DNA of 64,000 nucleotides, from IMG/VR virus record IMGVR_UViG_3300037258_001195, positions 28,988-92,987 of that record. One strand, given 5' to 3'. Every line of letters starts with the position of its first letter. Within the stretch, counting starts at the first letter, position 1. The position numbers were made by a program, and so were the translations under genes. The notes under the pieces are model-generated. The model saw nothing but the letters and a program-made list of their open reading frames with translations. It ran no database searches and was not told where the DNA came from. The DNA comes from a virus. Below, in pieces: positions 1,038-58,400 of this stretch.

Positions 1038-3401
1038 TTACGACGTTCCAGCTAAGTTGCCGGTCAAATTTGCCAACGTAGCATCAGTTCGATTCGGGAC
1101 AATCGAAAGAATATCACCGGGAACAAAACTCTCAGCAGTTCCGGTAAAGGTGGCATCTGTATCGGTGGCAAGAATAGTCATGGTGCCGAAATTAGTCCCA
1201 TTCTTATTTATATCAAATGTTGTATCTGCCGTTGCAGCGGTTCCCGCCGTACAGACGCTTCCGGAGAGATTTAAGGGAAAATTGTCCGCTGCCCCGAAAG
1301 TATAATTTAAAATCGGCGTTCCACTATGCGGAATTCCACCGAACGAGAACGGAATATTAACCGGATTGACTCCGCCCGCTCCCGTCAACGTGTACGTGAA
1401 GGCGGTTACTGTTGATAGGTCCTGGGTTGAATTCAAAAACTCATTGAAGCTCTGTAGTTTCACGAAAATTGTTGACCCAACAAGGTTGGAATTATAGTTA
1501 TATTTCACAACGCCAATTGGATCGGTTTGAATTCCAATATAAGCAAATTGCGACCCGCTAGAGTGCGAGCCAGGAGTGGTCCCAAATAGACCCCTATACA
1601 AGGTCGTAATGTCATATTTCGACGTAGCTGTTAAAGTTGCTGTTTCATACGAGAGCAATTCTTCATCGCAATAACACAACGTAACCCCGCTCGCAGCATC
1701 GCTAGACGAGGCAGATGTAATCACCCCGTTGCTTTCAGAGATATCAATTTTCAACGTATGTGTCGTATCAGGATTCGCGCCACTATGCGCTAGGAGCGCT
1801 GCTGTTAGGACTCCCTGCCTGAGCCCTGTATAAAGTGTCCCAATATTAGCATACGTACTGCCATCGGTCGAGACATTAACAATACAGCCACCCCAATCTG
1901 GACCACCTGAAGCACAAATCCACGCTTGGTTCTGCCCCGACGACAGCGGCGCATTAGGCTCAAAGATAATCGGAGAGTTTGTATCCCCCGGGTCGACAAA
2001 CACATTTGGCGTCTGAGAGCTTGGTGGAGACATAGAAAACACCGGCGTACTTGACACAACTGTCGGAATCTCTTCCGCCTCGAAGCTCAACTCTCCATTG
2101 TCGTTTTCACTAATCGACGTAATTCGCACCGGTGTATTAGACAACCCCGCATTGACATCGGTTAATTCAACGATATCCATTGGGTCCAGAAGCGCGAATA
2201 TCCAGCCCAATTGAAACTTATATGTGTTTCGGACGTTTTGTTTTCTTTGCACCTGGATTGTTGCCGACGCAAAAGCCGACACTAAATTCGTCATAGAATG
2301 GGCTTCTTTTGTCGCCTCATTCCTGACTCCCGGCCCACCCGTCTCCGCCGCAACGCTGTCGATGGCCCCTTGATCGAAAAAATTGGTAATATTCGCGTTA
2401 TAGGAGTTACTTGAGTCCAGGTACTCAAGTGCTAACCAATTAGTCGCTAATGTTGGATCACTTCGAGTTGTAATAACCGGATCGCTATCGCCGCCCCAGT
2501 CAATAAAATCCCGATCCGAGAGAGTATATTGAACAGTTAGATTTGGGGTCCAAGATCCTCCAAATCCACTATACGGCGACACAGCATATGGAACAACCTT
2601 TAACAATGCACTGGACCAAAATGGCGCCGCTACTGTAAGATCGCAAATCTCCTCTATCCAACGGGCGGCTGGCTGGCATCGGTCGAGAATCATCGACATT
2701 GCCAACCCGGCGGCCTGACAGTAGTTGCCAAAATCTGCCAGTGTCCCTGCACTATCGACATTCGCCGCTGGAAATCCTGCACCATACCTAGCATTCGTGC
2801 ATAGATCAACTATGATCCCAGACGGTCGGGCGTCGTCGGGAAAACTACTCCCCATCGATCCCGCAAGAGTTCCAGTTATTTCAAAACTAACATTCGGGAG
2901 CGTTGGCGCTTGACCGAGCTGAAGCGGCGTTCCGGTTACGTAGCACGTTCCCGAATATCCAATAACAGGTTGATTGGGATCTTTTGCCACAAATGTCGAA
3001 TCTGCCGCCTGCCCATCTGACCCGCCGTATGCATTTAAGCCAACCGCACCAGGTCCATAGGCAATTCCGTCATTGGCCCAAATTCGATTTTCCCCTCCAA
3101 CTCCATATTGCGCGCCGGTAAAGCCGGCTGGACCTTGACAAATTCCAAACGCAGTGTAGACAGAATACGTCGCCGCCTTTTTCCCACCAGACTTTCCGAT
3201 CGCTCCGCCTTTACCGCCCTTAGACCCGGCGCCGTTGAAGTCCCAAAGTTCAAGAACATTAATTGAAACTCGTTGCGTACCATATACGATTGGAAGGGGT
3301 TGACCCTGTTGGGACGTATTGTATCTGAGGCTGCCAATTGCCGGCTCCGCGAAAGCATTAACAAACGGCGTTGGCGCGCCACCTTTCCCGACCTCAGGCA
3401 T
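1038..3401 (-). CDS. Tail tip / host-specificity protein (Phage-tail_3, GTA megatron-like)
   Basis: GQPLPIVYG N-terminus, PNVSFEI and LDPMDIVELTD motifs; follows NlpC/P60. Confidence 0.85.
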   Translation of the reverse strand: MPEVGKGGAPTPFVNAFAEPAIGSLRYNTSQQGQPLPIVYGTQRVSINVLELWDFNGAGSKGGKGGAIGKSGGKKAATYSVYTAFGICQGPAGFTGAQYGVGGENRIWANDGIAYGPGAVGLNAYGGSDGQAADSTFVAKDPNQPVIGYSGTCYVTGTPLQLGQAPTLPNVSFEITGTLAGSMGSSFPDDARPSGIIVDLCTNARYGAGFPAANVDSAGTLADFGNYCQAAGLAMSMILDRCQPAARWIEEICDLTVAAPFWSSALLKVVPYAVSPYSGFGGSWTPNLTVQYTLSDRDFIDWGGDSDPVITTRSDPTLATNWLALEYLDSSNSYNANITNFFDQGAIDSVAAETGGPGVRNEATKEAHSMTNLVSAFASATIQVQRKQNVRNTYKFQLGWIFALLDPMDIVELTDVNAGLSNTPVRITSISENDNGELSFEAEEIPTVVSSTPVFSMSPPSSQTPNVFVDPGDTNSPIIFEPNAPLSSGQNQAWICASGGPDWGGCIVNVSTDGSTYANIGTLYTGLRQGVLTAALLAHSGANPDTTHTLKIDISESNGVITSASSSDAASGVTLCYCDEELLSYETATLTATSKYDITTLYRGLFGTTPGSHSSGSQFAYIGIQTDPIGVVKYNYNSNLVGSTIFVKLQSFNEFLNSTQDLSTVTAFTYTLTGAGGVNPVNIPFSFGGIPHSGTPILNYTFGAADNFPLNLSGSVCTAGTAATADTTFDINKNGTNFGTMTILATDTDATFTGTAESFVPGDILSIVPNRTDATLANLTGNLAGTS

Positions 3402-3886
3402 CAGGCGTCCTTAAACGGAGAGTAAAACCGCCGCTCTTTCGTCACCAACGCAGCAAGCCTCTCCGCATCGACCTCAAGAACTTGTCTAGCTCCAATCCAC
3501 GCATGGACAATATTCGGCCATTCAGTCACAATTCCCCCATGAGAGAACAATCGGCCGAACTTATATAGGACTATATCCGCCGGCCCTGGCACCTCAACGC
3601 GTTTCGCAAACGTCTCAACAATAGACAAATACCATTCCTCATCGCGATGAATGGCGAAATCGGGAGAGTAGTGTTTTAGTTTATAATCCAATGGCATATA
3701 GCCATGCGCCCCATAGACGGCAATTAGGAGCTGACCACAATCCACGCCGGCCCCAAGGACTCGCGCCTCGTGATGAAAGCTAGTCCCAATCCACTTTCGC
3801 GCCTCAGAGATAATTACCTGCCGTTCAAGGGAAATCATATCTAACCTCGCATTATAAAGCATATTCGGGCGGAGGGACATAATCAA
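3401..3886 (-). CDS. NlpC/P60 tail-associated peptidase
   Basis: ARKWIGTSFHH..GVDC (catalytic Cys), HGGI, HA; true start may be slightly downstream. Confidence 0.9.
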   Translation of the reverse strand: MIMSLRPNMLYNARLDMISLERQVIISEARKWIGTSFHHEARVLGAGVDCGQLLIAVYGAHGYMPLDYKLKHYSPDFAIHRDEEWYLSIVETFAKRVEVPGPADIVLYKFGRLFSHGGIVTEWPNIVHAWIGARQVLEVDAERLAALVTKERRFYSPFKDA

Positions 3887-4826
3887 AGCCGCCGTAAAAA
3901 GCTAGATTATTCAACGTCCCTTGACAAAAGCTCGCCTGATGCGTACAGCCGGGAAGAAGCTGGAACAAGTCCCCCACCATAACCGGATACGGGAAGCCGC
4001 GAAGTAATCCAACTATTGTTGGGATTCCCACGCTTTGAATTCCGCGCGAAATGCCGGTGTTTTGCCCCGAAAGTCCAGTGCAGGTTCCAAGGGCCATGTA
4101 CGATGGAACCCCAATGGCGTTAATAATATCCGTTTGAGACGACCCAGCAACGGCCTCTATATTAAACGCGCCAACTCCGGTCGGTGTCCCGTTGCCATTA
4201 TTTCCCGTCACCCGGTCAAATTTACACATAGCATCCCCGAAGATATGCGTACAGCCGCTTTGAAACAACCTCCGTGGCATCTGCTGTTGTTGGAGCAAAT
4301 TAATATACGACTTAATCTTCATCTTAATCACACTGCGGCTAATATCAATGTCCGCGACTTTGCCATAAAACCAAACAATACAACCGAGGTCGGAAACTAA
4401 AGGTCCCGCGAACCCGTCGCCTCCGGTTGGGATAAAAAATCTATCTACCTCGACCGTTGCCCCGTCAAATCCTCCCGCCTGGGCGAATTGCTGCCAGGTT
4501 AGAGTTCCGACCATATCCGCTGATTCAGCCGTCGTACTACCGGCAGCGTAGACGTCTAAGTCTAATTCTGCGGGCTCAATTCCCACTTTCGTGTTAACTT
4601 TTGTCCGCCCAAATCGCGGTCCGCGTGAGAATATGACATTTCCACTCGCGGCATAATTTAAGGGCGATCCGGGAAAATTCGTGGCTGGAATTGTTAGTGT
4701 CGATAATGGATAATCACATTGACGAAGAACAATCCCTCCCGCAAGCGCAAACGTATATAAGTCACACAACACAACCGTGTCGTTGGAATTGAGATAATTA
4801 ACCAGCGCTGTCAAGGCAGGCTTCAC
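3852..4826 (-). CDS. DUF2163 / BR0599-family tail hub protein
   Basis: GGFDGATVEVDR, C.H.FGD..C, PGC....C, YGGFDYVP; GTG start overlaps the upstream stop. Confidence 0.85.
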   Translation of the reverse strand: MKPALTALVNYLNSNDTVVLCDLYTFALAGGIVLRQCDYPLSTLTIPATNFPGSPLNYAASGNVIFSRGPRFGRTKVNTKVGIEPAELDLDVYAAGSTTAESADMVGTLTWQQFAQAGGFDGATVEVDRFFIPTGGDGFAGPLVSDLGCIVWFYGKVADIDISRSVIKMKIKSYINLLQQQQMPRRLFQSGCTHIFGDAMCKFDRVTGNNGNGTPTGVGAFNIEAVAGSSQTDIINAIGVPSYMALGTCTGLSGQNTGISRGIQSVGIPTIVGLLRGFPYPVMVGDLFQLLPGCTHQASFCQGTLNNLAFYGGFDYVPPPEYAL

Positions 4827-5113
4827 GACACGTCCCCGTCTATAATAGCTCCTGTCCAACCGCAAGGCGGCGGATGTAAGATCCAACCTTTTACGCTTAA
4901 GGTCGAGAAATCATACCCTGATACGGAATATCTGCTTTGGGGAAACGCCAAGGCGTCGAGTCCCTCATACCAAATCACAATCATCCCACCGCATCGCGGA
5001 CAATTGAACGAAAATCCATTCGCCAAAACTGCATCAATGACACGATCATAATGCAGACTATGAGCCTGTCGACGAAATCGAAGAAATTCCGGACGAAATA
5101 ATTCTAATCTCAC
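4823..5113 (-). CDS. Small Cys-containing protein (DUF6527-like) inserted between the distal tail and hub genes
   Basis: FNCPRC ... CGWTGAIIDG; coupled at both ends by GTGA overlaps. Confidence 0.5.
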   Translation of the reverse strand: MRLELFRPEFLRFRRQAHSLHYDRVIDAVLANGFSFNCPRCGGMIVIWYEGLDALAFPQSRYSVSGYDFSTLSVKGWILHPPPCGWTGAIIDGDVS

Positions 5114-5733
5114 AGCAACACCGACTGAAGTTTCAATTCCTGCAACGTCCAAAGTTGCCGCATGAATTGTTCGAAATCCTCCGTATCATCGGCGAATCGA
5201 CAGATAAAGTAGAAACTAAATGTTGCAGTAATAGATGCATTGTTCGGGGGAGCGGTTGTAAACGTGACCACGCCAGTTCCAATGTTCACGGTATAGTCGG
5301 TAACCGCCAACCCATTTACATATATACCCTCAATGACATTTGGAGCCAAAATGGGCTCCGTGAACGACGTTCCTCCATAGTACGTCATAGTCCTGACAAG
5401 TTGAAACGCCGTGAACGTCCCATTTCCCACACCAATCGGCTGCATAGCAATATAATTGTCCGTTTCATCATTAAATAGAAACGGCGACAATGATCCTTGT
5501 TGGGCCATAAACAGGCCCATAAGGACACGTAATTCATCAAATTTATTCTTGTATAATTTTGGCCCCAATCCCCGCAGAAAGTCAAACCGCAATTTAAACA
5601 GCCAAGTTGGAACTGGTTGATATGTCAGCCTAAGCTCCCTACCACTGACACCTTTTTGGGTCTTAGTTTTGAACTGCGGGGATTTTGTTGTACTGTACGT
5701 CAATCCGGGGAGTGTCGGAAATATTACAGCCAC
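5110..5733 (-). CDS. DUF2460 distal tail protein
   Basis: FPTLPGL, SGRELR, IGVGNG..TAFQLVR, CRFADD. Confidence 0.9.
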   Translation of the reverse strand: MAVIFPTLPGLTYSTTKSPQFKTKTQKGVSGRELRLTYQPVPTWLFKLRFDFLRGLGPKLYKNKFDELRVLMGLFMAQQGSLSPFLFNDETDNYIAMQPIGVGNGTFTAFQLVRTMTYYGGTSFTEPILAPNVIEGIYVNGLAVTDYTVNIGTGVVTFTTAPPNNASITATFSFYFICRFADDTEDFEQFMRQLWTLQELKLQSVLL

Positions 5734-5756
5734 GGGCAGAGCCTTTCAGACGTGCG

Positions 5757-6269
5757 TTACTTGGATGTCGGGCTCGGCGCAGTTCCATCGTCGAGTAGCG
5801 GCCCAAGGTCGGCGAGCGTGTCGGCGGGGATCGGGTTGTCCTTCTGAAGCTGATCCGCCGGGAGTCGAAACAGATTCATCATCTCGGCAACTCGCTTCTT
5901 CAACAGCGCCGTAGCGTCGGCCTGCGCCTTCGCGGGATCGAGTTTGGCGACACTCTGGATGTTGCTGAGCGCTGCGTCGGAATCCTCGACCGCCGGTTTC
6001 AGCGCGTTGAGATCATGTGCGATCCACAGCGTCAGGCCAGGACCGAACTTATACGGCTCACTGACGACGTGCTCCTGCCCACCATCCTTCACCGTCCGAT
6101 CCTGCTTGCCGCCGAGCGCCCGGAGTGCCTGGAACGCCGACCGCGCTTCGCCATAGGTCATCGGGATGTTCTGAGCCCCCGACGCAGGTGTGGATGCGGG
6201 TGCTACGTCATTGGCGTAGGCAGTCGTCGCCAGGAACGATAGGGCCGCCGCGAGTATAACCCGGTTCAT
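5757..6269 (-). CDS. Signal-peptide protein, tail-fibre chaperone-like
   Basis: GGAGG RBS; MNRVILAAALSFLATTAYA|N; helical body ending NPIPADTLADLGPLLD. Confidence 0.55.
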   Translation of the reverse strand: MNRVILAAALSFLATTAYANDVAPASTPASGAQNIPMTYGEARSAFQALRALGGKQDRTVKDGGQEHVVSEPYKFGPGLTLWIAHDLNALKPAVEDSDAALSNIQSVAKLDPAKAQADATALLKKRVAEMMNLFRLPADQLQKDNPIPADTLADLGPLLDDGTAPSPTSK

Positions 6270-50748: not shown

Positions 50749-52173
50749 TTGGGGGACGAAGACGTGGTAAAAACAGTTGCGATAGATGATATAATAATTC
50801 GCCCCAACCGGCAAAGAAAGACCACCAAGGACGTCGACCCTCAATTCATCGCAAGCGTTAATCGGCGACTAATCAACCCCATTATCCTTATATCTCAACC
50901 CGACGGCATTGTCCTTTGTGCCGGCGAGCGACGACTAATTGCCCTTCGCGCCGGAAGCGTAACAGACCTAATTGAAAACGTCCATTTCCGCTTCTTCGCT
51001 GACCTCAATTCCGACGAAGCGGAAATTATCGAACTTGAAGAGAACGTGAAACGCGAGGATCTACATTGGCGCGATCATGTTGCCGCTGTAGGACGAATCC
51101 ATGCGATCTTCAAAGCTCGCGATGAAACCTGGACCGACCGAAAAACCGCCCAAGAGATTAATACCTCCCGGACAAGCATTAAAGAACATCTGATGATCTT
51201 TCGAAATCTCGACAACACGGCCCTCCGCGATGCAACTGGGACCAAACAAGCCTATTCTATCCTTCAAGGGATTGCCGAGCGCCGAACGGTCTCAATCGTG
51301 CAGGCGGTGACCAAGGTCGGTAGCGAAATTTTCGACATAAAGGCGCAAAGTAATGACCCGAGCGGGAATAATAGTCCAAGTCCTATTCCTAATTCTAATC
51401 CTAGTCATACTTCCCGGCTTAGCTCTCCTATCCCATCATCTCCTATCCCGCCTGATATCCCGCCTATGCCAGACAAAGAGCCCGAACCATCAATCCTAAA
51501 CACGGATTTTATAAAATGGATCTCAGGCTACTCGGGTGACAAATTCACCTTAATTCACTGTGACTTCCCGTATGACGTCAAATACGATTCCTATGCAAAG
51601 AGTATCTCGTCCGTGACCGACGATTATGACTTCTCTGGCTTCTGGCCCCTGATAGACGCCCTGTGTGGCAATCTCGACAAGATAATGTCCTATTCTGCCC
51701 ACATGATGTTCTGGTTTTCCATGAAATTCTACGAACAAACCAAAGGTCGATTGGAAAAAGCCGGCCTTTATGTCCACGATCATCCTTTTGTCTGGCAAAA
51801 AACCGACAACGCTGGAATTATCCCCGGGCGAGATGGTATTTTCCCGCGCCGCATTTACGAAACTGCATTTCTCTGTTCTCGTGGTCGCCGCCCGCTCGTT
51901 AAGTCCTTAGCAAACTGCTACGGCGCCCCGATGCAGTCGAATTCCATCCATCCCTCCACCAAGCCTGTCCCCGTGCTCAAGCATTTTTTTGCTATGCTCA
52001 TTGACGAAACTACTGATGTTCTAGACCCAACTGCAGGCAGCGGAAACAGCTTAATCGCCGCGGAGGACATGGGCGCGCGAAAGATCCTCGGACTAGAAAT
52101 CAATCCGACCTACGCAACCGCCGCACAAAGCGCGCTAGAGCGGTTTCGGGTTATGAGAAAGATCAGCAAATGA
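50749..52173 (+). CDS. ParB-like domain fused to an N6/N4 DNA methyltransferase
   Basis: LINPI..AGERRL.A..ELEEN..R; DFPY, HPS.KP, VLDPTAGSG. Confidence 0.85.
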   Translation: MGDEDVVKTVAIDDIIIRPNRQRKTTKDVDPQFIASVNRRLINPIILISQPDGIVLCAGERRLIALRAGSVTDLIENVHFRFFADLNSDEAEIIELEENVKREDLHWRDHVAAVGRIHAIFKARDETWTDRKTAQEINTSRTSIKEHLMIFRNLDNTALRDATGTKQAYSILQGIAERRTVSIVQAVTKVGSEIFDIKAQSNDPSGNNSPSPIPNSNPSHTSRLSSPIPSSPIPPDIPPMPDKEPEPSILNTDFIKWISGYSGDKFTLIHCDFPYDVKYDSYAKSISSVTDDYDFSGFWPLIDALCGNLDKIMSYSAHMMFWFSMKFYEQTKGRLEKAGLYVHDHPFVWQKTDNAGIIPGRDGIFPRRIYETAFLCSRGRRPLVKSLANCYGAPMQSNSIHPSTKPVPVLKHFFAMLIDETTDVLDPTAGSGNSLIAAEDMGARKILGLEINPTYATAAQSALERFRVMRKISK

Positions 52174-52379
52174 CCCTAGATCAACTAATCCAAGCTTGTA
52201 TCGCAAAGAAAGTCGGCAATAAAGAGTTCGCCCTATTCTTCATCCCTCCCGATTGGAGTGCTGACATAGGAAATCCGACTTCAGTGGTTATGCTGGGAGA
52301 AGCGCGGGGGGAAATATGTAGTGACGAGCACCCGACAGCAATCGCAGCAGTCGCACAACTATTGGAACGAATTCCATGA
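52170..52379 (+). CDS. Hypothetical protein
   Basis: ATGA-coupled at both ends. Confidence 0.55.
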   Translation: MTLDQLIQACIAKKVGNKEFALFFIPPDWSADIGNPTSVVMLGEARGEICSDEHPTAIAAVAQLLERIP

Positions 52380-52417
52380 AGGTCGTTCTCGTCGCAGAGG
52401 CCTGGGGACGCCGATGA
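52376..52417 (+). pseudogene. Orphaned 5' stub of the UDG-exo gene (MKVVLVAEAWGRR*)
   Basis: 11/13 aa identical to the N-terminus of 52842-54140. Confidence 0.85.
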
Positions 52418-52851
52418 AAGAAATAATATTATCCAATGGGTTAATAGCTCTCGTCGATGACGATGACTATTCTCGACTTAGTAACTTTAGTTGGTTTGCG
52501 ATGCCACGACGTAATACAAATCATGCCGCACGTAAAGATAATAGTGGATGGGGAAAATACAGATACCGTAAGAATATATACATGCATACAGATGTTATGG
52601 GAATAACTCCAGATAATCTAGTATTGGATCATATAGATAGAAATGGGCTAAATAATCAAAAAGCCAATTTGCGATTCGTAACATACAGCCAAAATGCTGT
52701 AAATTCAGAGCGAAATGAAAGGGGACACATAGAGCGTCATGGTCGAAAATGGAGAGTTCGCGTGAAGCGTGAAGGAATTAGAATAGAGATTGGATCATTC
52801 TATACACATGAATCTGCAACCAAAGCTCTAGAGGACTTTCTATGCGAGTAG
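52414..52851 (+). mobile_element. Free-standing HNH homing endonuclease (HNH plus AP2-like domain)
   Basis: ALVDDDDY, YMH, DHIDRNGLNNQKANLR, KWRVRV..IGSF; AT-rich. Confidence 0.88.
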
Positions 52852-54140
52852 TACTTGTTGCGGAAGCATATGGACGCCGCGAAGCCCAGTTTCAACACGC
52901 GCTGGTTGGTCCATCTGGCCGCGAACTAACCCTCGAAATGGCAATCGCCGGCTTCGCGCCCTATATGACCCTCCTATGCCGAAAGTGCAGCAAGACCTCT
53001 CAATTCATCGACGGTTTTTGCGAGCATTGCCGCGAGTACATATGGCCGAATGAATTTGACTTAATCGCCCATTGGAAACGTCTTAAGGAAATTTTAGGCT
53101 TCCACGTCACAAATGTATTTAATTTCCAGCCACCAAGCATCTGCTCGAATTGCGGCGCTCTCGGATCGGCAATTCGCTTCGGCACCGCCCCCAAGTGCAA
53201 AGACTGTGGCTCGAAAGAAATCCGCGAAAACGACCTGTCGAGCCTCTTCGGAACCGAAATCGAAACCCCCCTCGTTGGTTGGCGCGCCCCGAAGCGGACT
53301 GGAAGCCACCTCAAACGAGAGTATTTCTTCCACATTGAACGGCTTTGGAAAGAATTGAAGAGCCTCAACCCAAATCTCGTCGTTGCTCTCGGCAATTGTC
53401 CCTGCTGGGCAATTCTCGACCAACCTGGCATCACCGCGGCACGCGGAACAATCTCGACCTCAGAGCGCCTCGGCTTTAAGGTTCTTCCGACATTTCATCC
53501 CGCTGCCGTCCTCCGGAACACGGCCCTCCGCGCGACCTGTATCGCCGACTTCCAAAAAGCCGCCCGCGAGGCTGAATTTCCCGAAATTCGTCGCCAGGAG
53601 CGCTGGATTGAAATAATCGACCCTACTGAAGAAGGAATTCGTCGTGGATACGAATGGTTTAAAAAGCCTGCCCGAGCCTACGCAAACGATATTGAGACTC
53701 ATAAGCGACAAATTACCATTGTTGGATTCGCACGCTCCGTCGACGATGCGCTTGTCATTCCCCTTAGAGTCGAACCTCCAAGGGCAAAACTTAAAAATTC
53801 TGATGGAAAGCTTGTCGCCAACCCAAATTATGAGGCTGAACTCCTTTCGTTCGAGCCGAACTACTGGCCGACGCCAGAATTAGAAGCCAAAGCCTGGAAG
53901 CTAATTCAACACGGCTTGCAGACTCCTCAGCCGAAGATATTCCAGAACGGACTTTACGACATGAGCTATGAGCTTCTTCTCGGCCTTCAGCCCGTCAATG
54001 CCATCCACGACACGATGCTTTGGCACCATTCTCTGTATCCTGAATTGCCAAAGTCACTTGGCTTCCTCGGGTCCATCTATTGCGCAGAAATTGCATGGAA
54101 GAGTATGAGACGTGGTGAGACATTAAAAAGGGATGAATAA
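52842..54140 (+). CDS. Uracil-DNA-glycosylase-like domain plus the N-terminal part of the DNA polymerase 3'-5' exonuclease
   Basis: EAYG..E, VGPSG, TNV, VVALG, TFHPAAVLR; ExoI DIET, ExoII QNGLYD, HDTML, KSLGFLGS. Confidence 0.85.
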   Translation: MRVVLVAEAYGRREAQFQHALVGPSGRELTLEMAIAGFAPYMTLLCRKCSKTSQFIDGFCEHCREYIWPNEFDLIAHWKRLKEILGFHVTNVFNFQPPSICSNCGALGSAIRFGTAPKCKDCGSKEIRENDLSSLFGTEIETPLVGWRAPKRTGSHLKREYFFHIERLWKELKSLNPNLVVALGNCPCWAILDQPGITAARGTISTSERLGFKVLPTFHPAAVLRNTALRATCIADFQKAAREAEFPEIRRQERWIEIIDPTEEGIRRGYEWFKKPARAYANDIETHKRQITIVGFARSVDDALVIPLRVEPPRAKLKNSDGKLVANPNYEAELLSFEPNYWPTPELEAKAWKLIQHGLQTPQPKIFQNGLYDMSYELLLGLQPVNAIHDTMLWHHSLYPELPKSLGFLGSIYCAEIAWKSMRRGETLKRDE

Positions 54141-54723
54141 AATGCCGAGATATGGATGGCGTAAAAGCTACGCTAAAATTTGCTCTATTGATGGATGTAA
54201 CGATGCCGTAAAATATAAAGGCATGTGCGGAATGCACTATAAACGACAATGGCGTCATGGAGATGTTAATATTTCACTAATTCCACACGAATTTACTGAC
54301 CGACATGTATGTGACGTTGATAGTTGTCAAGAATTACAATATGCTAGTAATTCTCCATATTGTAAGAAGCATTATTTACGTCTGTATAGGTTTGGTAGAT
54401 TGCATAATATAAAAAACGGATATGGCGAAAGTAAAGTTAGACATAAAGCAGCTGGTGGATATTGGGAGATAAACGATGAAGAAGGAAGAAAGATATATGA
54501 GCACGTTTGGTTAGCTGAAAAAGCACTGGGAAAGAAGCTACCATCAGGTGCTATAGTTCATCATATGAATAAAGATCGAGGTGACAATGATACACCATTC
54601 AATCTAATAGTTTGTCCTAATCAAGCATATCATCTACTATTACATAAACGAATGCGAGATTTAGGATATATCGGAGATCTCTTGGAAACAAATGAGACGT
54701 GGCGAGACCCTAAAGCGGGATGA
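54133..54723 (+). mobile_element. Free-standing HNH homing endonuclease with two N-terminal Cys/His repeats
   Basis: C..DGC..C..HY.R x2, EH...AE..LG, VHHMNKDRGDN..NL; AT-rich. Confidence 0.85.
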
Positions 54724-54727
54724 ATAA
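54674..54727 (+). pseudogene. Orphaned 3' end of the UDG-exo gene (EISWKQMRRGETLKRDE*)
   Basis: 15/17 aa identical to 54087-54140. Confidence 0.85.
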
Positions 54728-54956
54728 AATGAAAAATTGGCTAAAATTTGAATATGGTACGTATATAAATGGAATAGAATGGAAGACGGAAGGAATGGTA
54801 TACATAGACCCGGCAGCTATATCTTCAGTTATGGAAATATCACGACACTTTCCAAATGCGACAGGCTGTTGTATATATTTAGGATATTCAGGCAAACAAT
54901 ACGCTGTTCGCGAATCCATCAGCGCTGTTATGGCTGAAATTCAGTCCGCACTTTAG
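54720..54956 (+). CDS. Small hypothetical protein (FlbD-like pattern)
   Basis: VYIDP..ISSV.E...V.ES...V. Confidence 0.5.
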   Translation: MNKMKNWLKFEYGTYINGIEWKTEGMVYIDPAAISSVMEISRHFPNATGCCIYLGYSGKQYAVRESISAVMAEIQSAL

Positions 54957-54976
54957 TTGAGAAAGGACGACCCGAC

Positions 54977-55510
54977 ATGACAATCCTCTCTGCCCAGTCA
55001 ATTCGACTCTTAAGTCGTCTATCAAAGACTGATACATCATATATGTACCTACACACGAGAGGGGGAAAAGTCACATTTAGACCTGGTAAACCTCTCATTA
55101 CTCCCTTTGTCGAGCGCGGCGTGAAGAACGGACGATCTTTCGGCCTTTCTGCCTGCTCCTATGATTGTCGAATTGCTGATGGTCTCGTCATTCCCGTCGG
55201 CCAATCGCGCCTCGCAAGCACAATGGAGCGATTCTGTCTACCCAACAACATCTGCGGCTCAGTGTTGGACAAATCAACCTGGGCCAGAAAGTTCCTCTCG
55301 GCCTTTAATACCCATTTGGACCCCGGCTGGGAAGGCTTCCTAACGGTGGAGTTAACTAACCTTGGTTCCGAAGCCGCATTTTTCGAGCCAGGCGATTCAT
55401 TGGTCCAAATAAAGTTCGAGTGGCTCGATGAACCAACGAACCTTCCATATTCAGGAAAATATCAAGCCCAGGAAGCTGGTCCACAAGGGCCGCGAAGTGA
55501 GCAGACCTGA
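54977..55510 (+). CDS. dcd: dCTP deaminase
   Basis: SFGLS..SYD, DKSTWAR, NT.LDPGWEGFLTVEL, Y.GKYQ.Q. Confidence 0.88.
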   Translation: MTILSAQSIRLLSRLSKTDTSYMYLHTRGGKVTFRPGKPLITPFVERGVKNGRSFGLSACSYDCRIADGLVIPVGQSRLASTMERFCLPNNICGSVLDKSTWARKFLSAFNTHLDPGWEGFLTVELTNLGSEAAFFEPGDSLVQIKFEWLDEPTNLPYSGKYQAQEAGPQGPRSEQT

Positions 55511-57018
55511 TGCCTCTAATTGCCGCCCATGAAACGAACATTTCCGCCGGAACCCAGACCATTTACAACGGTTTCGACTGTGCCCTAACGTTTCAGATCG
55601 ATGAGGTCCGCCAGAACCTTCACGCCAACGACACCCTAATCTATGATTTCGAACGGGCTATGCAGGGTTCCGCACTAGAAATGTCCCTGCGCGGTTTTCG
55701 TGTCGACATCGACGAACGGGAGCGGGCGATCATCTCGACACGTTCCCGCCGCAACGACTACAGCTATGTGTTGCAGAAGATTCTTGAGGCAATTCCCGGT
55801 AATTGGACTGATAAGCTCGCGGGCTCCCCAACTCAACTTCAAGCCCTGTTCTACGACACCATGAACCTTCCACAATTCCCCAAATTCGTCAACGGCGAGC
55901 GCAAGCTCCCAATGAACCGAGAAACGTTGGAGAAAATCCAGCTAACCGACCCCTGGGCCGACGTCCTAATCAACACAATCCTCTGGAGCCGAGACCTCTC
56001 AAAGACGCTCCAGGTCCTTGAAACAGAAATTCGCGCCGACGAAAGCCGGTTTCCCGGCGACTTAAATTGGCGCTGGCACTGTTCCTACAACATCGGGGGA
56101 ACAACAACAGGGAGGTGGAGTTCCAGCAAATCCCCCTTCGGAGACGGAAATAACTTCCAAAATGTCAGTGAGGAACTTCGCCGTGTTTTCATTCCTGACC
56201 CAGGCTTTAAACTCTATGGGATTGACAAAGCGCAAAGCGAAGCCCGAGATGTCGGGTGGTTTTGCGGTCTTGTTTTCGGAGATTGGAGTTACTTGGACGC
56301 CTGTGAGTCTGGCGACCTCCACACAAACGTCACCAAACTCCTTTATCCTGAGTGGTCCTGGACCGGGGACGCTAAACGGGATCGTCAAATTGCCGAACGG
56401 CGATTCTATCGACTATTCACTTACCGTGACGCGTCGAAGCGCCTCGGACATGCCACAAATTACCTGGTTACACCGGCTGAAGCCTCCCGACAAATCAGAA
56501 TTCCATTAAATCTCGTTGAGGAATTCCAGCGCCGATATTTCGCTGCCTTCCCCTGCATTCGGATGATGCATGACTGGGTATCGAGCGAACTCCAAAGGAA
56601 GCGATATCTCGTCAATTCCTTTGGCCGCCGGCGAGATTTTTTCGACCATCCCAAGAGTCGAGAAACTTTAAAGGGCGCAATCGCCTATTTGTTTCAGTCC
56701 GCTACCGGCGACTGCCTCAACCTGGGCCTTTATCGACTTTGGACTCGCATGAAGGGTCGAATTGAAATCCTCTCCCAGCTCCACGACGCGGTCTATTTTC
56801 AGGCCCCGATTTCAAAGAGCGACGCCGAAGAACAGGAACTTCTCCGCGAGTGTATTGATTGCATCGAGGTCGAACAAACTACAACCCGAAACGGGGGGCG
56901 GAAGATGAAAATCCCTGGAGACATCGTTGGGGGTTTTAATTGGGCTCATAGGTTTAGATTTGGCGGTAAAGATGACTGGAATCCAAAAGGTCTTGATGGA
57001 ATAAGGATCGCGGCATGA
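55510..57018 (+). CDS. Family A DNA polymerase (ExoIII plus polymerase domain)
   Basis: YNGFD, SPTQL, TTTGRWSSS, NFQN, motif A DKAQSEAR, GDLH, motif B K...H..NY, motif C HDA. Confidence 0.92.
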   Translation: MPLIAAHETNISAGTQTIYNGFDCALTFQIDEVRQNLHANDTLIYDFERAMQGSALEMSLRGFRVDIDERERAIISTRSRRNDYSYVLQKILEAIPGNWTDKLAGSPTQLQALFYDTMNLPQFPKFVNGERKLPMNRETLEKIQLTDPWADVLINTILWSRDLSKTLQVLETEIRADESRFPGDLNWRWHCSYNIGGTTTGRWSSSKSPFGDGNNFQNVSEELRRVFIPDPGFKLYGIDKAQSEARDVGWFCGLVFGDWSYLDACESGDLHTNVTKLLYPEWSWTGDAKRDRQIAERRFYRLFTYRDASKRLGHATNYLVTPAEASRQIRIPLNLVEEFQRRYFAAFPCIRMMHDWVSSELQRKRYLVNSFGRRRDFFDHPKSRETLKGAIAYLFQSATGDCLNLGLYRLWTRMKGRIEILSQLHDAVYFQAPISKSDAEEQELLRECIDCIEVEQTTTRNGGRKMKIPGDIVGGFNWAHRFRFGGKDDWNPKGLDGIRIAA

Positions 57019-57185
57019 CAATCAACGACATCATAGAAGAGATTGAATATCGGCTTGCAAATGCAAAAGAAGCAATGCGAGACAGTATAAGTGCGGGATA
57101 TAATTCACCCGGATTTAATCAAGACCTTGGAGGCCATGACACACTAACTGAACTTCTGTCTTGGATAAAAGAAGAAAACACGTAA
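57015..57185 (+). CDS. Small AT-rich hypothetical protein (56 aa)
   Basis: ATGA-coupled to pol; read by hand because it is below the ORF-track cutoff. Confidence 0.5.
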   Translation: MTINDIIEEIEYRLANAKEAMRDSISAGYNSPGFNQDLGGHDTLTELLSWIKEENT

Positions 57186-57197
57186 AAGGCCAAACTC

Positions 57198-58400
57198 GTG
57201 TCAAACGACTGGATAGAGACATTCCTCGAATACACGGACTCCATTCGAAGTCCCCGTGTTTTTCGCCTATGGACAGCGATCGGAATGATATCGGCAATCC
57301 TAGAGCGGAAGGTTTGGACCGAAACCGACGTGCGACCCTTATTCCCAAACACCTACATCGTCCTCTCCGGCCATCCCGGCAGTGGAAAGTCTGTCGGGGT
57401 TGGCCTTGCGCGCGAAATGCTAGCTGGACTGGGTGGCGCCGGCGGAATCCATCTCGGCCCCGACAACCCGACCGAAGCCTCGTTCATGGACGCCCTTTAC
57501 GCCAGCGCAAAGCCATCGATCAACGGCTCAGGCGGAATCCTACATTCATGTATGACAGTCCTTTGTCGCGAGTTCGGGGTTTTGATCCCTAAGTATTCCG
57601 AGTCCTTCATGGCGACCCTCGGCGACTTGTGGGACAATCCCCCAATGTTCACCGCGCCCCGAAGACAATCCAAATCTGTCGCAATCGAATGTCCGACATT
57701 GAATCTTCTTGCCGCTGCGACTCCTGCCGCGCTCGGCGACATGCCCGAGAAAGCCTGGAAAGAAGGCTTCGCAAGTCGTGTGATTTTCATCTATGGCGCA
57801 AGTGCTAAAGAATACCGGAATGTTTTCGTGAAACCCAGGCTAGCCGACCTTTCCCGTCTAAAGAAAACCCTCGACGAGTGGTTCCATGAAATCCACGGTG
57901 CGTTCGAATGGTCCGATGCAGCCGCCGACGCCCATCTGAAATGGCTCAACGGTGAGAACCTAGCACCAGTTCCAACTTACGGTCGCCTGGAGCACTATCT
58001 CTCCCGTCGCAACGAACACGCCATGAAGCTGATGATGATTTCATCAGTTTCCGCCGGGAATGGCCTTGTGATTGAATTGTCCGATTTCGAGCGGGGCCGC
58101 CAATGGCTTCTAGACGCGGAGCAAACGATGCCCGACGTTTTCCGCGCGATGAGCCAAAAATCCGACATGCAGATAATGCAAGACGCGCATCATTTCGTCT
58201 ACGCACGGTATTCGCGGGTGGGATTGAAGGACCGGAAGCCGGTTGCCGAGACCCTCGTTGCTCGGTTTTTCGAAAACAAAACGACATCAGAACGCATCAC
58301 GGGATTAATCGAAACGATGGTCCGGACCGGGCGCCTAAAGAGAACCCAATTCGGGGGATACGTTCCTGGCGAATTAGACATTTCCCAAAGCATCGAATAA
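57198..58400 (+). CDS. DUF3987-like P-loop ATPase (putative replicative helicase)
   Basis: SP..F..W, PN.Y..L.GHPGSGKS, EFG, LWD, AATP, GFASR. Confidence 0.75.
   Translation: MSNDWIETFLEYTDSIRSPRVFRLWTAIGMISAILERKVWTETDVRPLFPNTYIVLSGHPGSGKSVGVGLAREMLAGLGGAGGIHLGPDNPTEASFMDALYASAKPSINGSGGILHSCMTVLCREFGVLIPKYSESFMATLGDLWDNPPMFTAPRRQSKSVAIECPTLNLLAAATPAALGDMPEKAWKEGFASRVIFIYGASAKEYRNVFVKPRLADLSRLKKTLDEWFHEIHGAFEWSDAAADAHLKWLNGENLAPVPTYGRLEHYLSRRNEHAMKLMMISSVSAGNGLVIELSDFERGRQWLLDAEQTMPDVFRAMSQKSDMQIMQDAHHFVYARYSRVGLKDRKPVAETLVARFFENKTTSERITGLIETMVRTGRLKRTQFGGYVPGELDISQSIE

Follow-up and report, generated by a model that had tools for sequence, protein, structure and literature searches.

Duplicated ends of a split DNA polymerase gene beside two HNH endonuclease genes in a provirus

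Gene order around polN and its duplicated ends

The window analysed here, a stretch of 64,000 nt, was taken from a 93-kb provirus record, and all genes surrounding the duplication lie on its + strand. A DNA methylase gene (50749–52173) is followed by a small ORF of 69 codons (52170–52379), which overlaps the methylase stop and ends just before an orphan stub of the 5′ end of polN. This stub of 13 codons plus a stop (52376–52417) is ATGA-coupled to an HNH_3 endonuclease gene at the polN 5′ end (52414–52851; Pfam HNH_3, 29.8 bits; PHROG 99), referred to as HNH1. Next comes polN itself (52842–54140; Pfam UDG, PHROG 'DNA polymerase'), the N-terminal piece of a split family-A DNA polymerase, followed by a free-standing HNH_3 gene encoding 193 aa (HNH2; 54142–54723, with an alternative ATG at 54133), which runs into an orphan copy of the polN 3′ end. 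Downstream lie a small AT-rich ORF (orf78; 54729–54956, alternative ATG at 54720), a dCTP-deaminase-like gene (54977–55510; Pfam DCD, E 9e-17), the polC gene encoding the C-terminal piece of the polymerase (55510–57018; Pfam DNA_pol_A, E 2.6e-21) and a DUF3987 primase-like gene (57198–58400). A blastn search with the 52000–57200 region returned no nucleotide match among phage records.

In relatives the methylase and polN genes are 5 nt apart, so that the 69-codon ORF represents extra DNA on the orphan side of HNH1. On the other flank, orf78 has no match in Pfam or PHROG and a GC3 of 0.2–0.4; its start context belongs to the repeat unit described below, and it was probably the resident gene behind polN before the HNH gene arrived. 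It is missing in the related loci L097 and L104, where the dCTP-deaminase-like gene lies directly behind polN, with no HNH gene between them.

The polN product contains a UDG-like domain and part of the exonuclease region, its residues 320–422 aligning with residues 192–292 of the unsplit, 801-aa polymerase of Pseudomonas phage Neko. A separate polN ending in ...LKRDE* is kept in more than 100 homologues, and in loci L009, L010 and L011 polC follows 6–33 nt behind polN with nothing in between. Because these insert-free relatives share the split, the division into polN and polC is old and independent of HNH2. HNH2 is thus not the maker of the split; it sits at the split, where it has duplicated the end of the first half. 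The closest polN homologues are the proteins P0052–P0054 (69–72% identical). Searching the genome contigs revealed no polN relatives, a degenerate DNA pattern for the polN tail peptide had no match in the viral contigs, and P0052 used as query against these viral contigs returned the known relatives only, at ~55%.

The working 3′ end of polN (54087–54144: 17 codons, the stop, AA and the ATG of HNH2) is in frame with the polN body and encodes EIAWKSMRRGETLKRDE* at 54087–54140, where the original prediction had placed it. As that prediction also stated, an orphan copy encoding EISWKQMRRGETLKRDE* (54674–54727) is present 587 nt further downstream, and the HNH2 ORF, whether started at 54133 or at 54142, reads through this copy in the +1 frame to reach its stop at 54723, a TGA inside GGGATGAATAA of the orphan. 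The repeat unit measures 58 nt (54087–54144 and 54674–54731), running 4 nt past the polN stop, through AA and the next ATG, which in the orphan is that of orf78. The two copies are identical at 45 of the 58 nt and at 15 of the 17 residues; 10 of the 17 codons differ between them, eight synonymously and two with a change of residue, and random placement of 13 substitutions yielded two or fewer residue changes in none of 20,000 trials. The orphan frame has no start codon, and a stop is located three codons upstream of it (54662–54664). When polN was compared by tblastn with the whole 93-kb record, the only matches were the gene itself and the orphan (E 1.9e-4); a chance origin of the repeat is ruled out by these positions and scores.

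The differences are unevenly spread over the repeat. The last 15 nt are identical in both copies (GGGATGAATAAAATG; 54130–54144 and 54717–54731), and all 13 differing positions fall within the preceding 43 nt. GGGATGAATAAAATG comprises a Shine-Dalgarno-like GGG, a stop and a start; the identity could be due to selection acting on the coupled start context, or alternatively it may mark a recombination joint.

A mirror image of this arrangement had been proposed for the 5′ end of the same gene, and is indeed found there: the stub at 52376–52417 is coupled to HNH1, after which polN restarts at 52842. Stub and polN start are alike in 11 of 13 residues, with eight synonymous and two non-synonymous codon changes between them, and their GC3 amounts to 0.69 and 0.31, respectively. 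The orphan stub moreover carries a W common to all relatives, in place of which the working copy has an unusual Y.

The HNH1 and HNH2 nucleases

HNH2 scores 33.8 bits (E 2.5e-8) against Pfam HNH_3, for which the cut-off is 24.8 bits, and matches 11 PHROG families, nine of which are annotated as HNH endonuclease. All 28 invariant columns of a 20-member family alignment are kept, including H143, H144, N152, H167 and H171, and the closest homologue is P0002 (66%). While a sequence search of the PDB yielded no match for HNH2, its AlphaFold model (pLDDT 80) could be compared with known structures. Residues 100–180 of the model retrieved the nuclease domain of I-HmuI as the top row (1u3e_M; Z 6.7, rmsd 3.3 Å over 75 residues), with the next unrelated structures at Z 4.3 or lower. 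A Z of 6.7 is middling, so the fold match should be read as support rather than proof; Foldseek alone gave an E of 0.2 for this pair. Taken together, these data point to HNH2 being a free-standing homing endonuclease of the I-HmuI-like HNH_3 kind, with predicted cleavage activity.

The N-terminal half of HNH2 (54142–54440, residues ~14–95) contains two similar Cys-rich modules (C..GC ... C..HY.R...G) that are conserved across the family and that probably serve in DNA recognition. Most of this Cys-rich region appears to be lacking from a short clade (L074, L082 and L095).

At its start, HNH2 sits in the stop/start context of polN, and at its end it has lost its own stop. Homology to the family ends near 54666, and because the C-termini of family members end within a few residues of '...LGY..', the last ~15 residues of HNH2 represent read-through into the orphan. 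The orphan contributes 15 residues in the +1 frame when judged from the family alignment, and 17 when counted from the orphan start; residues 182–191 of this tail are modelled with a pLDDT below 50. The GC content of the HNH2 region (0.34–0.38) is well below that of its surroundings (~0.52).

The proposal that two different HNH types had acted on one gene was borne out, HNH1 being located at the 5′ end of polN and HNH2 at its 3′ end, with no sequence relationship between them. Although both pass the Pfam HNH_3 threshold, pairwise comparison of the two by BLASTP revealed no similarity (E 15). The 93-kb record contains no other HNH_3 gene, and each of the two adjoins polN.

Related loci with and without an HNH gene

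The original prediction had tied the second gene end to the HNH gene, and we therefore looked for the duplication in relatives lacking the latter. It was absent there: 22 related loci carry a single polN end without a second copy. This single-end set includes L005–L012, L096–L101, L104–L106, L117 and Caulobacter phage Kuura, together with L029 and L074, which do carry an HNH gene yet have no orphan. Its members are 50–59% identical to the polN of the window where most of the gene is covered (~37% for Kuura), and their best downstream match to the polN end reaches at most 18 bits, as opposed to 31–50 bits in three HNH-bearing loci. The presence of the HNH gene is thus polymorphic, with ~15 distinct loci carrying one directly behind polN and 22 relatives without it.

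The flanks of the HNH gene were scanned in 79 viral loci encoding a member of the HNH2 family, comparing every upstream with every downstream frame. High-identity matches abutting the HNH gene were found in the window, L013, L042, L026 and L044, and probably in L087, among these 79 loci. Matches in the remaining loci scored 14–27 bits, or 31–53 bits in the case of long low-complexity matches that did not abut the gene. L013 (polN 34% and HNH 49% identical to those of the window) and L042 (HNH 38% identical) both show the order of polN end, HNH gene and orphan, with a stop codon directly before the orphan. Relative to the W of the conserved WK, the orphan starts four codons before in L042, three in the window and one to two in L013.

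The layout also occurs at 5′ ends. L026, which is located on the same contig as L010, has an orphan 5′ fragment of 46 codons, then the HNH gene and then a whole DUF3987 primase-like gene, and in L044 a 34-codon orphan 5′ fragment and the HNH gene precede a whole terminase large subunit gene. A homologue of HNH1 is found in L098 between an orphan of the first 21 polC codons and the whole polC (locus segments 3344–3406, 3427–3741, 3876–4487 and 5382–5867). A further insert, of ~0.9 kb, separates residues 213 and 214 of the L098 polC. With regard to the suggestion of a general invasion strategy, the recurrence of the same layout in L013, L042, L026, L044 and L098 speaks for its generality, whereas the word strategy may go too far, as the duplications could simply result from repair.

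A number of further loci display related features. In L087 (2731–3465 and 3458–3510), the first ~18 codons of the HNH gene resemble the start of the next gene (10 of 15 identical), as if a 5′ orphan had become joined in frame to the nuclease. The HNH tail of L022, near 3560–3603, ends in '..KIYEIDELF', faintly like the '..SIYCNDF..' of its own polN; the HNH of L022 is the sister of HNH2 in the tree, and its tail may be a decayed orphan read in frame, with a match that is not above background. The same applies to L074 and L075, where a weak '..IYC..S.WK' match inside the HNH 3′ end, likewise not above background, may stem from a decayed orphan. In L027, residues 1–69 of the primase-like gene (3624–3830) are separated by ~1 kb from residues 80–382 (4875–5783), apparently another insertion inside a replication gene.

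Overall, the HNH2 family lives in the replication module (methylase, polN, polC and primase) of this phage group, most often directly behind polN. No orphan can be recognised in 12 of the 15 distinct loci with that position, the other three having one, and the duplication is therefore frequent but not obligatory. Moreover, in about five of the orphan-free loci the HNH gene extends at its 3′ end into the start of polC, indicating that the element can sit between genes without duplication.

Origin of the working ends and comparison with known elements

To judge which copy is foreign, GC3 was used as a proxy, the DNA of relatives being compared only up to ~57% identity. In the window, the working 3′ end (0.29) and HNH2 (0.21) are set apart from the polN body (0.56) and the orphan (0.53), and the composition of polN switches at ~54087, which is the start of the repeat. 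The working copy has a lower GC3 than the orphan in seven of seven cases (one-sided sign test p = 0.008). It is close to the HNH gene in all seven clear cases, and the orphan is like the host gene body in six of them. Because working copy and HNH gene share their composition, a shared origin of the two is suggested. The tract of low GC3 in L026 continues for another ~30 codons inside the gene, which would be expected of a co-conversion tract. The polarity of GC3 in the seven cases is the one expected if the orphan represents the native, HNH-less allele.

The nature of the differences points in the same direction. Copies differ by 13–49 changes per case, overwhelmingly synonymous ones, and a synonymous dominance as observed in the seven clear cases has a simulated probability of at most 3e-4. 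The two copies of each pair therefore accumulated their differences as coding sequence in separate lineages and were joined only afterwards. A donor-derived working end next to a resident orphan would fit such divergence, which an in-place duplication would not.

These observations bear on three other explanations. The polarity might be reversed, with the working end being resident and the orphan being a foreign right flank from the HNH donor. The residues of the 3′ ends are mixed in this regard: the working end with its preceding residue ('CAE..WKS') resembles the closest homologue P0052 ('AAE..WKS'), with which it shares 'AE..WKS', and the S and Q of the orphan match P0053 and P0054. We nevertheless consider reversed polarity unlikely, given the low, HNH-like GC3 of all seven working copies, the host-like GC3 of six of the seven orphans, the switch in polN composition right at the repeat start, and a 5′ orphan that has kept the canonical W where the working copy has Y. 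It is also conceivable that the insertion created two identical 58-nt copies in situ, either as a target-site duplication from staggered nicks or as a tandem duplication, and that selection subsequently altered the codons of the working copy, either because this made it immune to the nuclease or because it guarded against repeat-mediated deletion. Such an origin would explain why copies within a genome are far more alike in protein than tails are across phages, and why the 3′ 15 nt are identical. An orphan free of selection should drift at all codon positions, yet it keeps a host-like GC3 and its peptide, the 13–49 mostly synonymous changes per case far exceed what immunity would need, and in composition the working copy agrees with the HNH gene. 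The synonymous bias and the contrast in GC3 lead us to reject the target-site origin, and we regard in-situ duplication as a whole as quite improbable.

HNH_3-class genes are often found within group I introns that interrupt phage polymerase genes, I-HmuI being an example. With the orphan intact, the locus might accordingly be read as a degenerate intron or intein, or the orphan as an alternative C-terminus that is expressed via splicing, bypassing or programmed deletion. The 52000–57200 region has no match to any Rfam family at E up to 1, however, and the polN stop precedes an HNH gene whose frame differs from that of both copies. Given also the stop codon directly before the orphan in L013 and L042, and a working copy upstream that makes splicing unnecessary, we give this explanation very little credence.

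The most plausible reading, and one we hold to be likely, is that a foreign gene end arrived through homing and that the resident end was left stranded. HNH2 would cut an HNH-less polN in the conserved ...EIAWK... stretch, ~50 nt before the stop, and repair would copy both the donor polN end and the HNH gene from an HNH-bearing relative. The donor end would encode the same peptide in a different spelling, and because it is spelt differently it presumably resists cutting. As the right-hand join would be made at the break, the last 17 codons of the recipient, its stop and the start of the next gene would be left as an untranslated orphan. polN stays whole despite the insertion. More speculatively, the orphan and the downstream genes could supply the element with homology immediately beside the cut when it homes into close relatives, and in lineages that have long carried the element the orphan might decay or be deleted. 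The position of the cut is suggested by the orphan edges, which would be the best available pointer to it under either of the readings discussed next. Homing of a foreign end does not fully explain the identity of the last 15 nt, as opposed to the ~30% divergence elsewhere in the copies.

Whether the duplicated end forms an obligatory part of a mobile cassette, as it does in the mORFs of fungal mitochondria, or is a scar left in a recipient without right-hand homology, stands at roughly even odds. In all orphan cases of the replication module, additional DNA that is not conserved lies on the side of the orphan (orf78 and the DCD gene in the window), which favours a scar, being what repair without nearby homology predicts. 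The HNH tree also appears to favour a scar: members from the replication module group together and site-specific subclades exist, and the orphan state is scattered over the tree, with at least three changes needed. A cassette, in turn, would be favoured by the precision of the right-hand joins, which lie within a few nt of the HNH stop in three of three cases, and by an orphan edge common to very distant phages. Orphans occurred in three of eight loci with extra genes between HNH and polC and in none of six without (Fisher estimate p ~0.2), a link that is only suggestive.

In the prevailing view, homing endonucleases invade essential coding sequence only when an intron or intein shields them, and settle between genes otherwise. 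At these phage loci a third outcome is seen, in which a differently spelt gene end is brought in and the gene keeps working. It is possible, though we put this forward tentatively, that, in addition to introns and inteins, homing endonucleases of unrelated families have in such terminus replacement a third general way into conserved phage coding sequence, at both 5′ and 3′ ends, the stranded end serving as homology arm and the inner edge of the orphan mapping the cut. If general, this route would account for many of the short 'pseudo-duplications' and small spurious ORFs beside phage HNH genes and would make cleavage sites predictable from sequence alone, the orphan edge being the cut. It would also identify tracts of foreign DNA inside core replication genes, which can mislead phylogenies. 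The locus offers a compact test bed for these ideas, since two unrelated nucleases have each struck one end of the same gene and relatives display the empty, clean and duplicated states.

A search of the literature, in which subscription journals were mostly outside coverage, revealed no phage description of duplicated ends at homing endonuclease genes, and two of the papers retrieved (PMC10448857 and PMC2248197) deal with a different subject. Among known phage systems, the free-standing endonucleases SegF, SegG and MobE of T4-like phages spread by intronless homing, in which sequence flanking the cleavage site is co-converted and resection must reach homology flanking the donor endonuclease gene (PMC2988022). 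HNH2 resembles them as a free-standing nuclease gene between conserved genes whose presence varies among relatives. At polN, unlike in these T4-like cases, a remnant of the recipient gene end persists and marks the presumed cut; duplicated gene ends are not mentioned in the review of the T4-like endonucleases (no occurrence of 'duplicat' in PMC2988022). The position of HNH2 between the halves of a split replication enzyme gene also recalls the genes-in-pieces, such as those formed by mobE in nrdA of Aeh1, mobA in the topoisomerase gene of T4 and a seg gene at gene 43 of Aeromonas phage 25 (PMC2988022), although the polN/polC split predates HNH2 and is independent of it. With I-HmuI of Bacillus phage SPO1 (PDB 1U3E), HNH2 has the catalytic fold and the Pfam family in common; I-HmuI, however, is intron-encoded and has other DNA-binding modules, as opposed to the two N-terminal Cys-rich repeats of HNH2.

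The closest parallel is provided by the mORF 'gene hybrids' of fungal mitochondria, described first for atp6 of Allomyces macrogynus (PMC3630166, its reference 48) and later for atp6, atp9, cox2 and nad3 of Glomus, atp9 of Rhizopus and cox2 of Mortierella (PMC3630166). In these hybrids too, an endonuclease gene lies inside the 3′ part of an essential gene, an in-phase C-terminal copy (here 54087–54140, in phase with polN) keeps the gene whole, the native C-terminal part (here the orphan at 54674–54727) is found downstream of the endonuclease, and the copies resemble each other as proteins while their DNA has diverged. The C-terminal copy of the mORF hybrids is foreign, the Allomyces case having been settled by a native end that matches the insert-free allele; at polN, a foreign origin of the working end is suggested by GC3 as a proxy. 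The present locus further differs in its phage host, in its HNH_3 nuclease, in the duplication of only 17 codons and in a layout that is mirrored at 5′ ends. Whereas two of the four mORFs of Glomus are in phase with the host gene (PMC3630166), HNH2 is a separate ORF that is stop/start-coupled to polN, and because its nuclease gene stands on its own behind the polN stop, the HNH2 locus is a variant rather than a member of the mORF hybrids. It is, in short, a phage variant, with an HNH nuclease and at both gene ends, of a kind of element known from fungal mitochondria.
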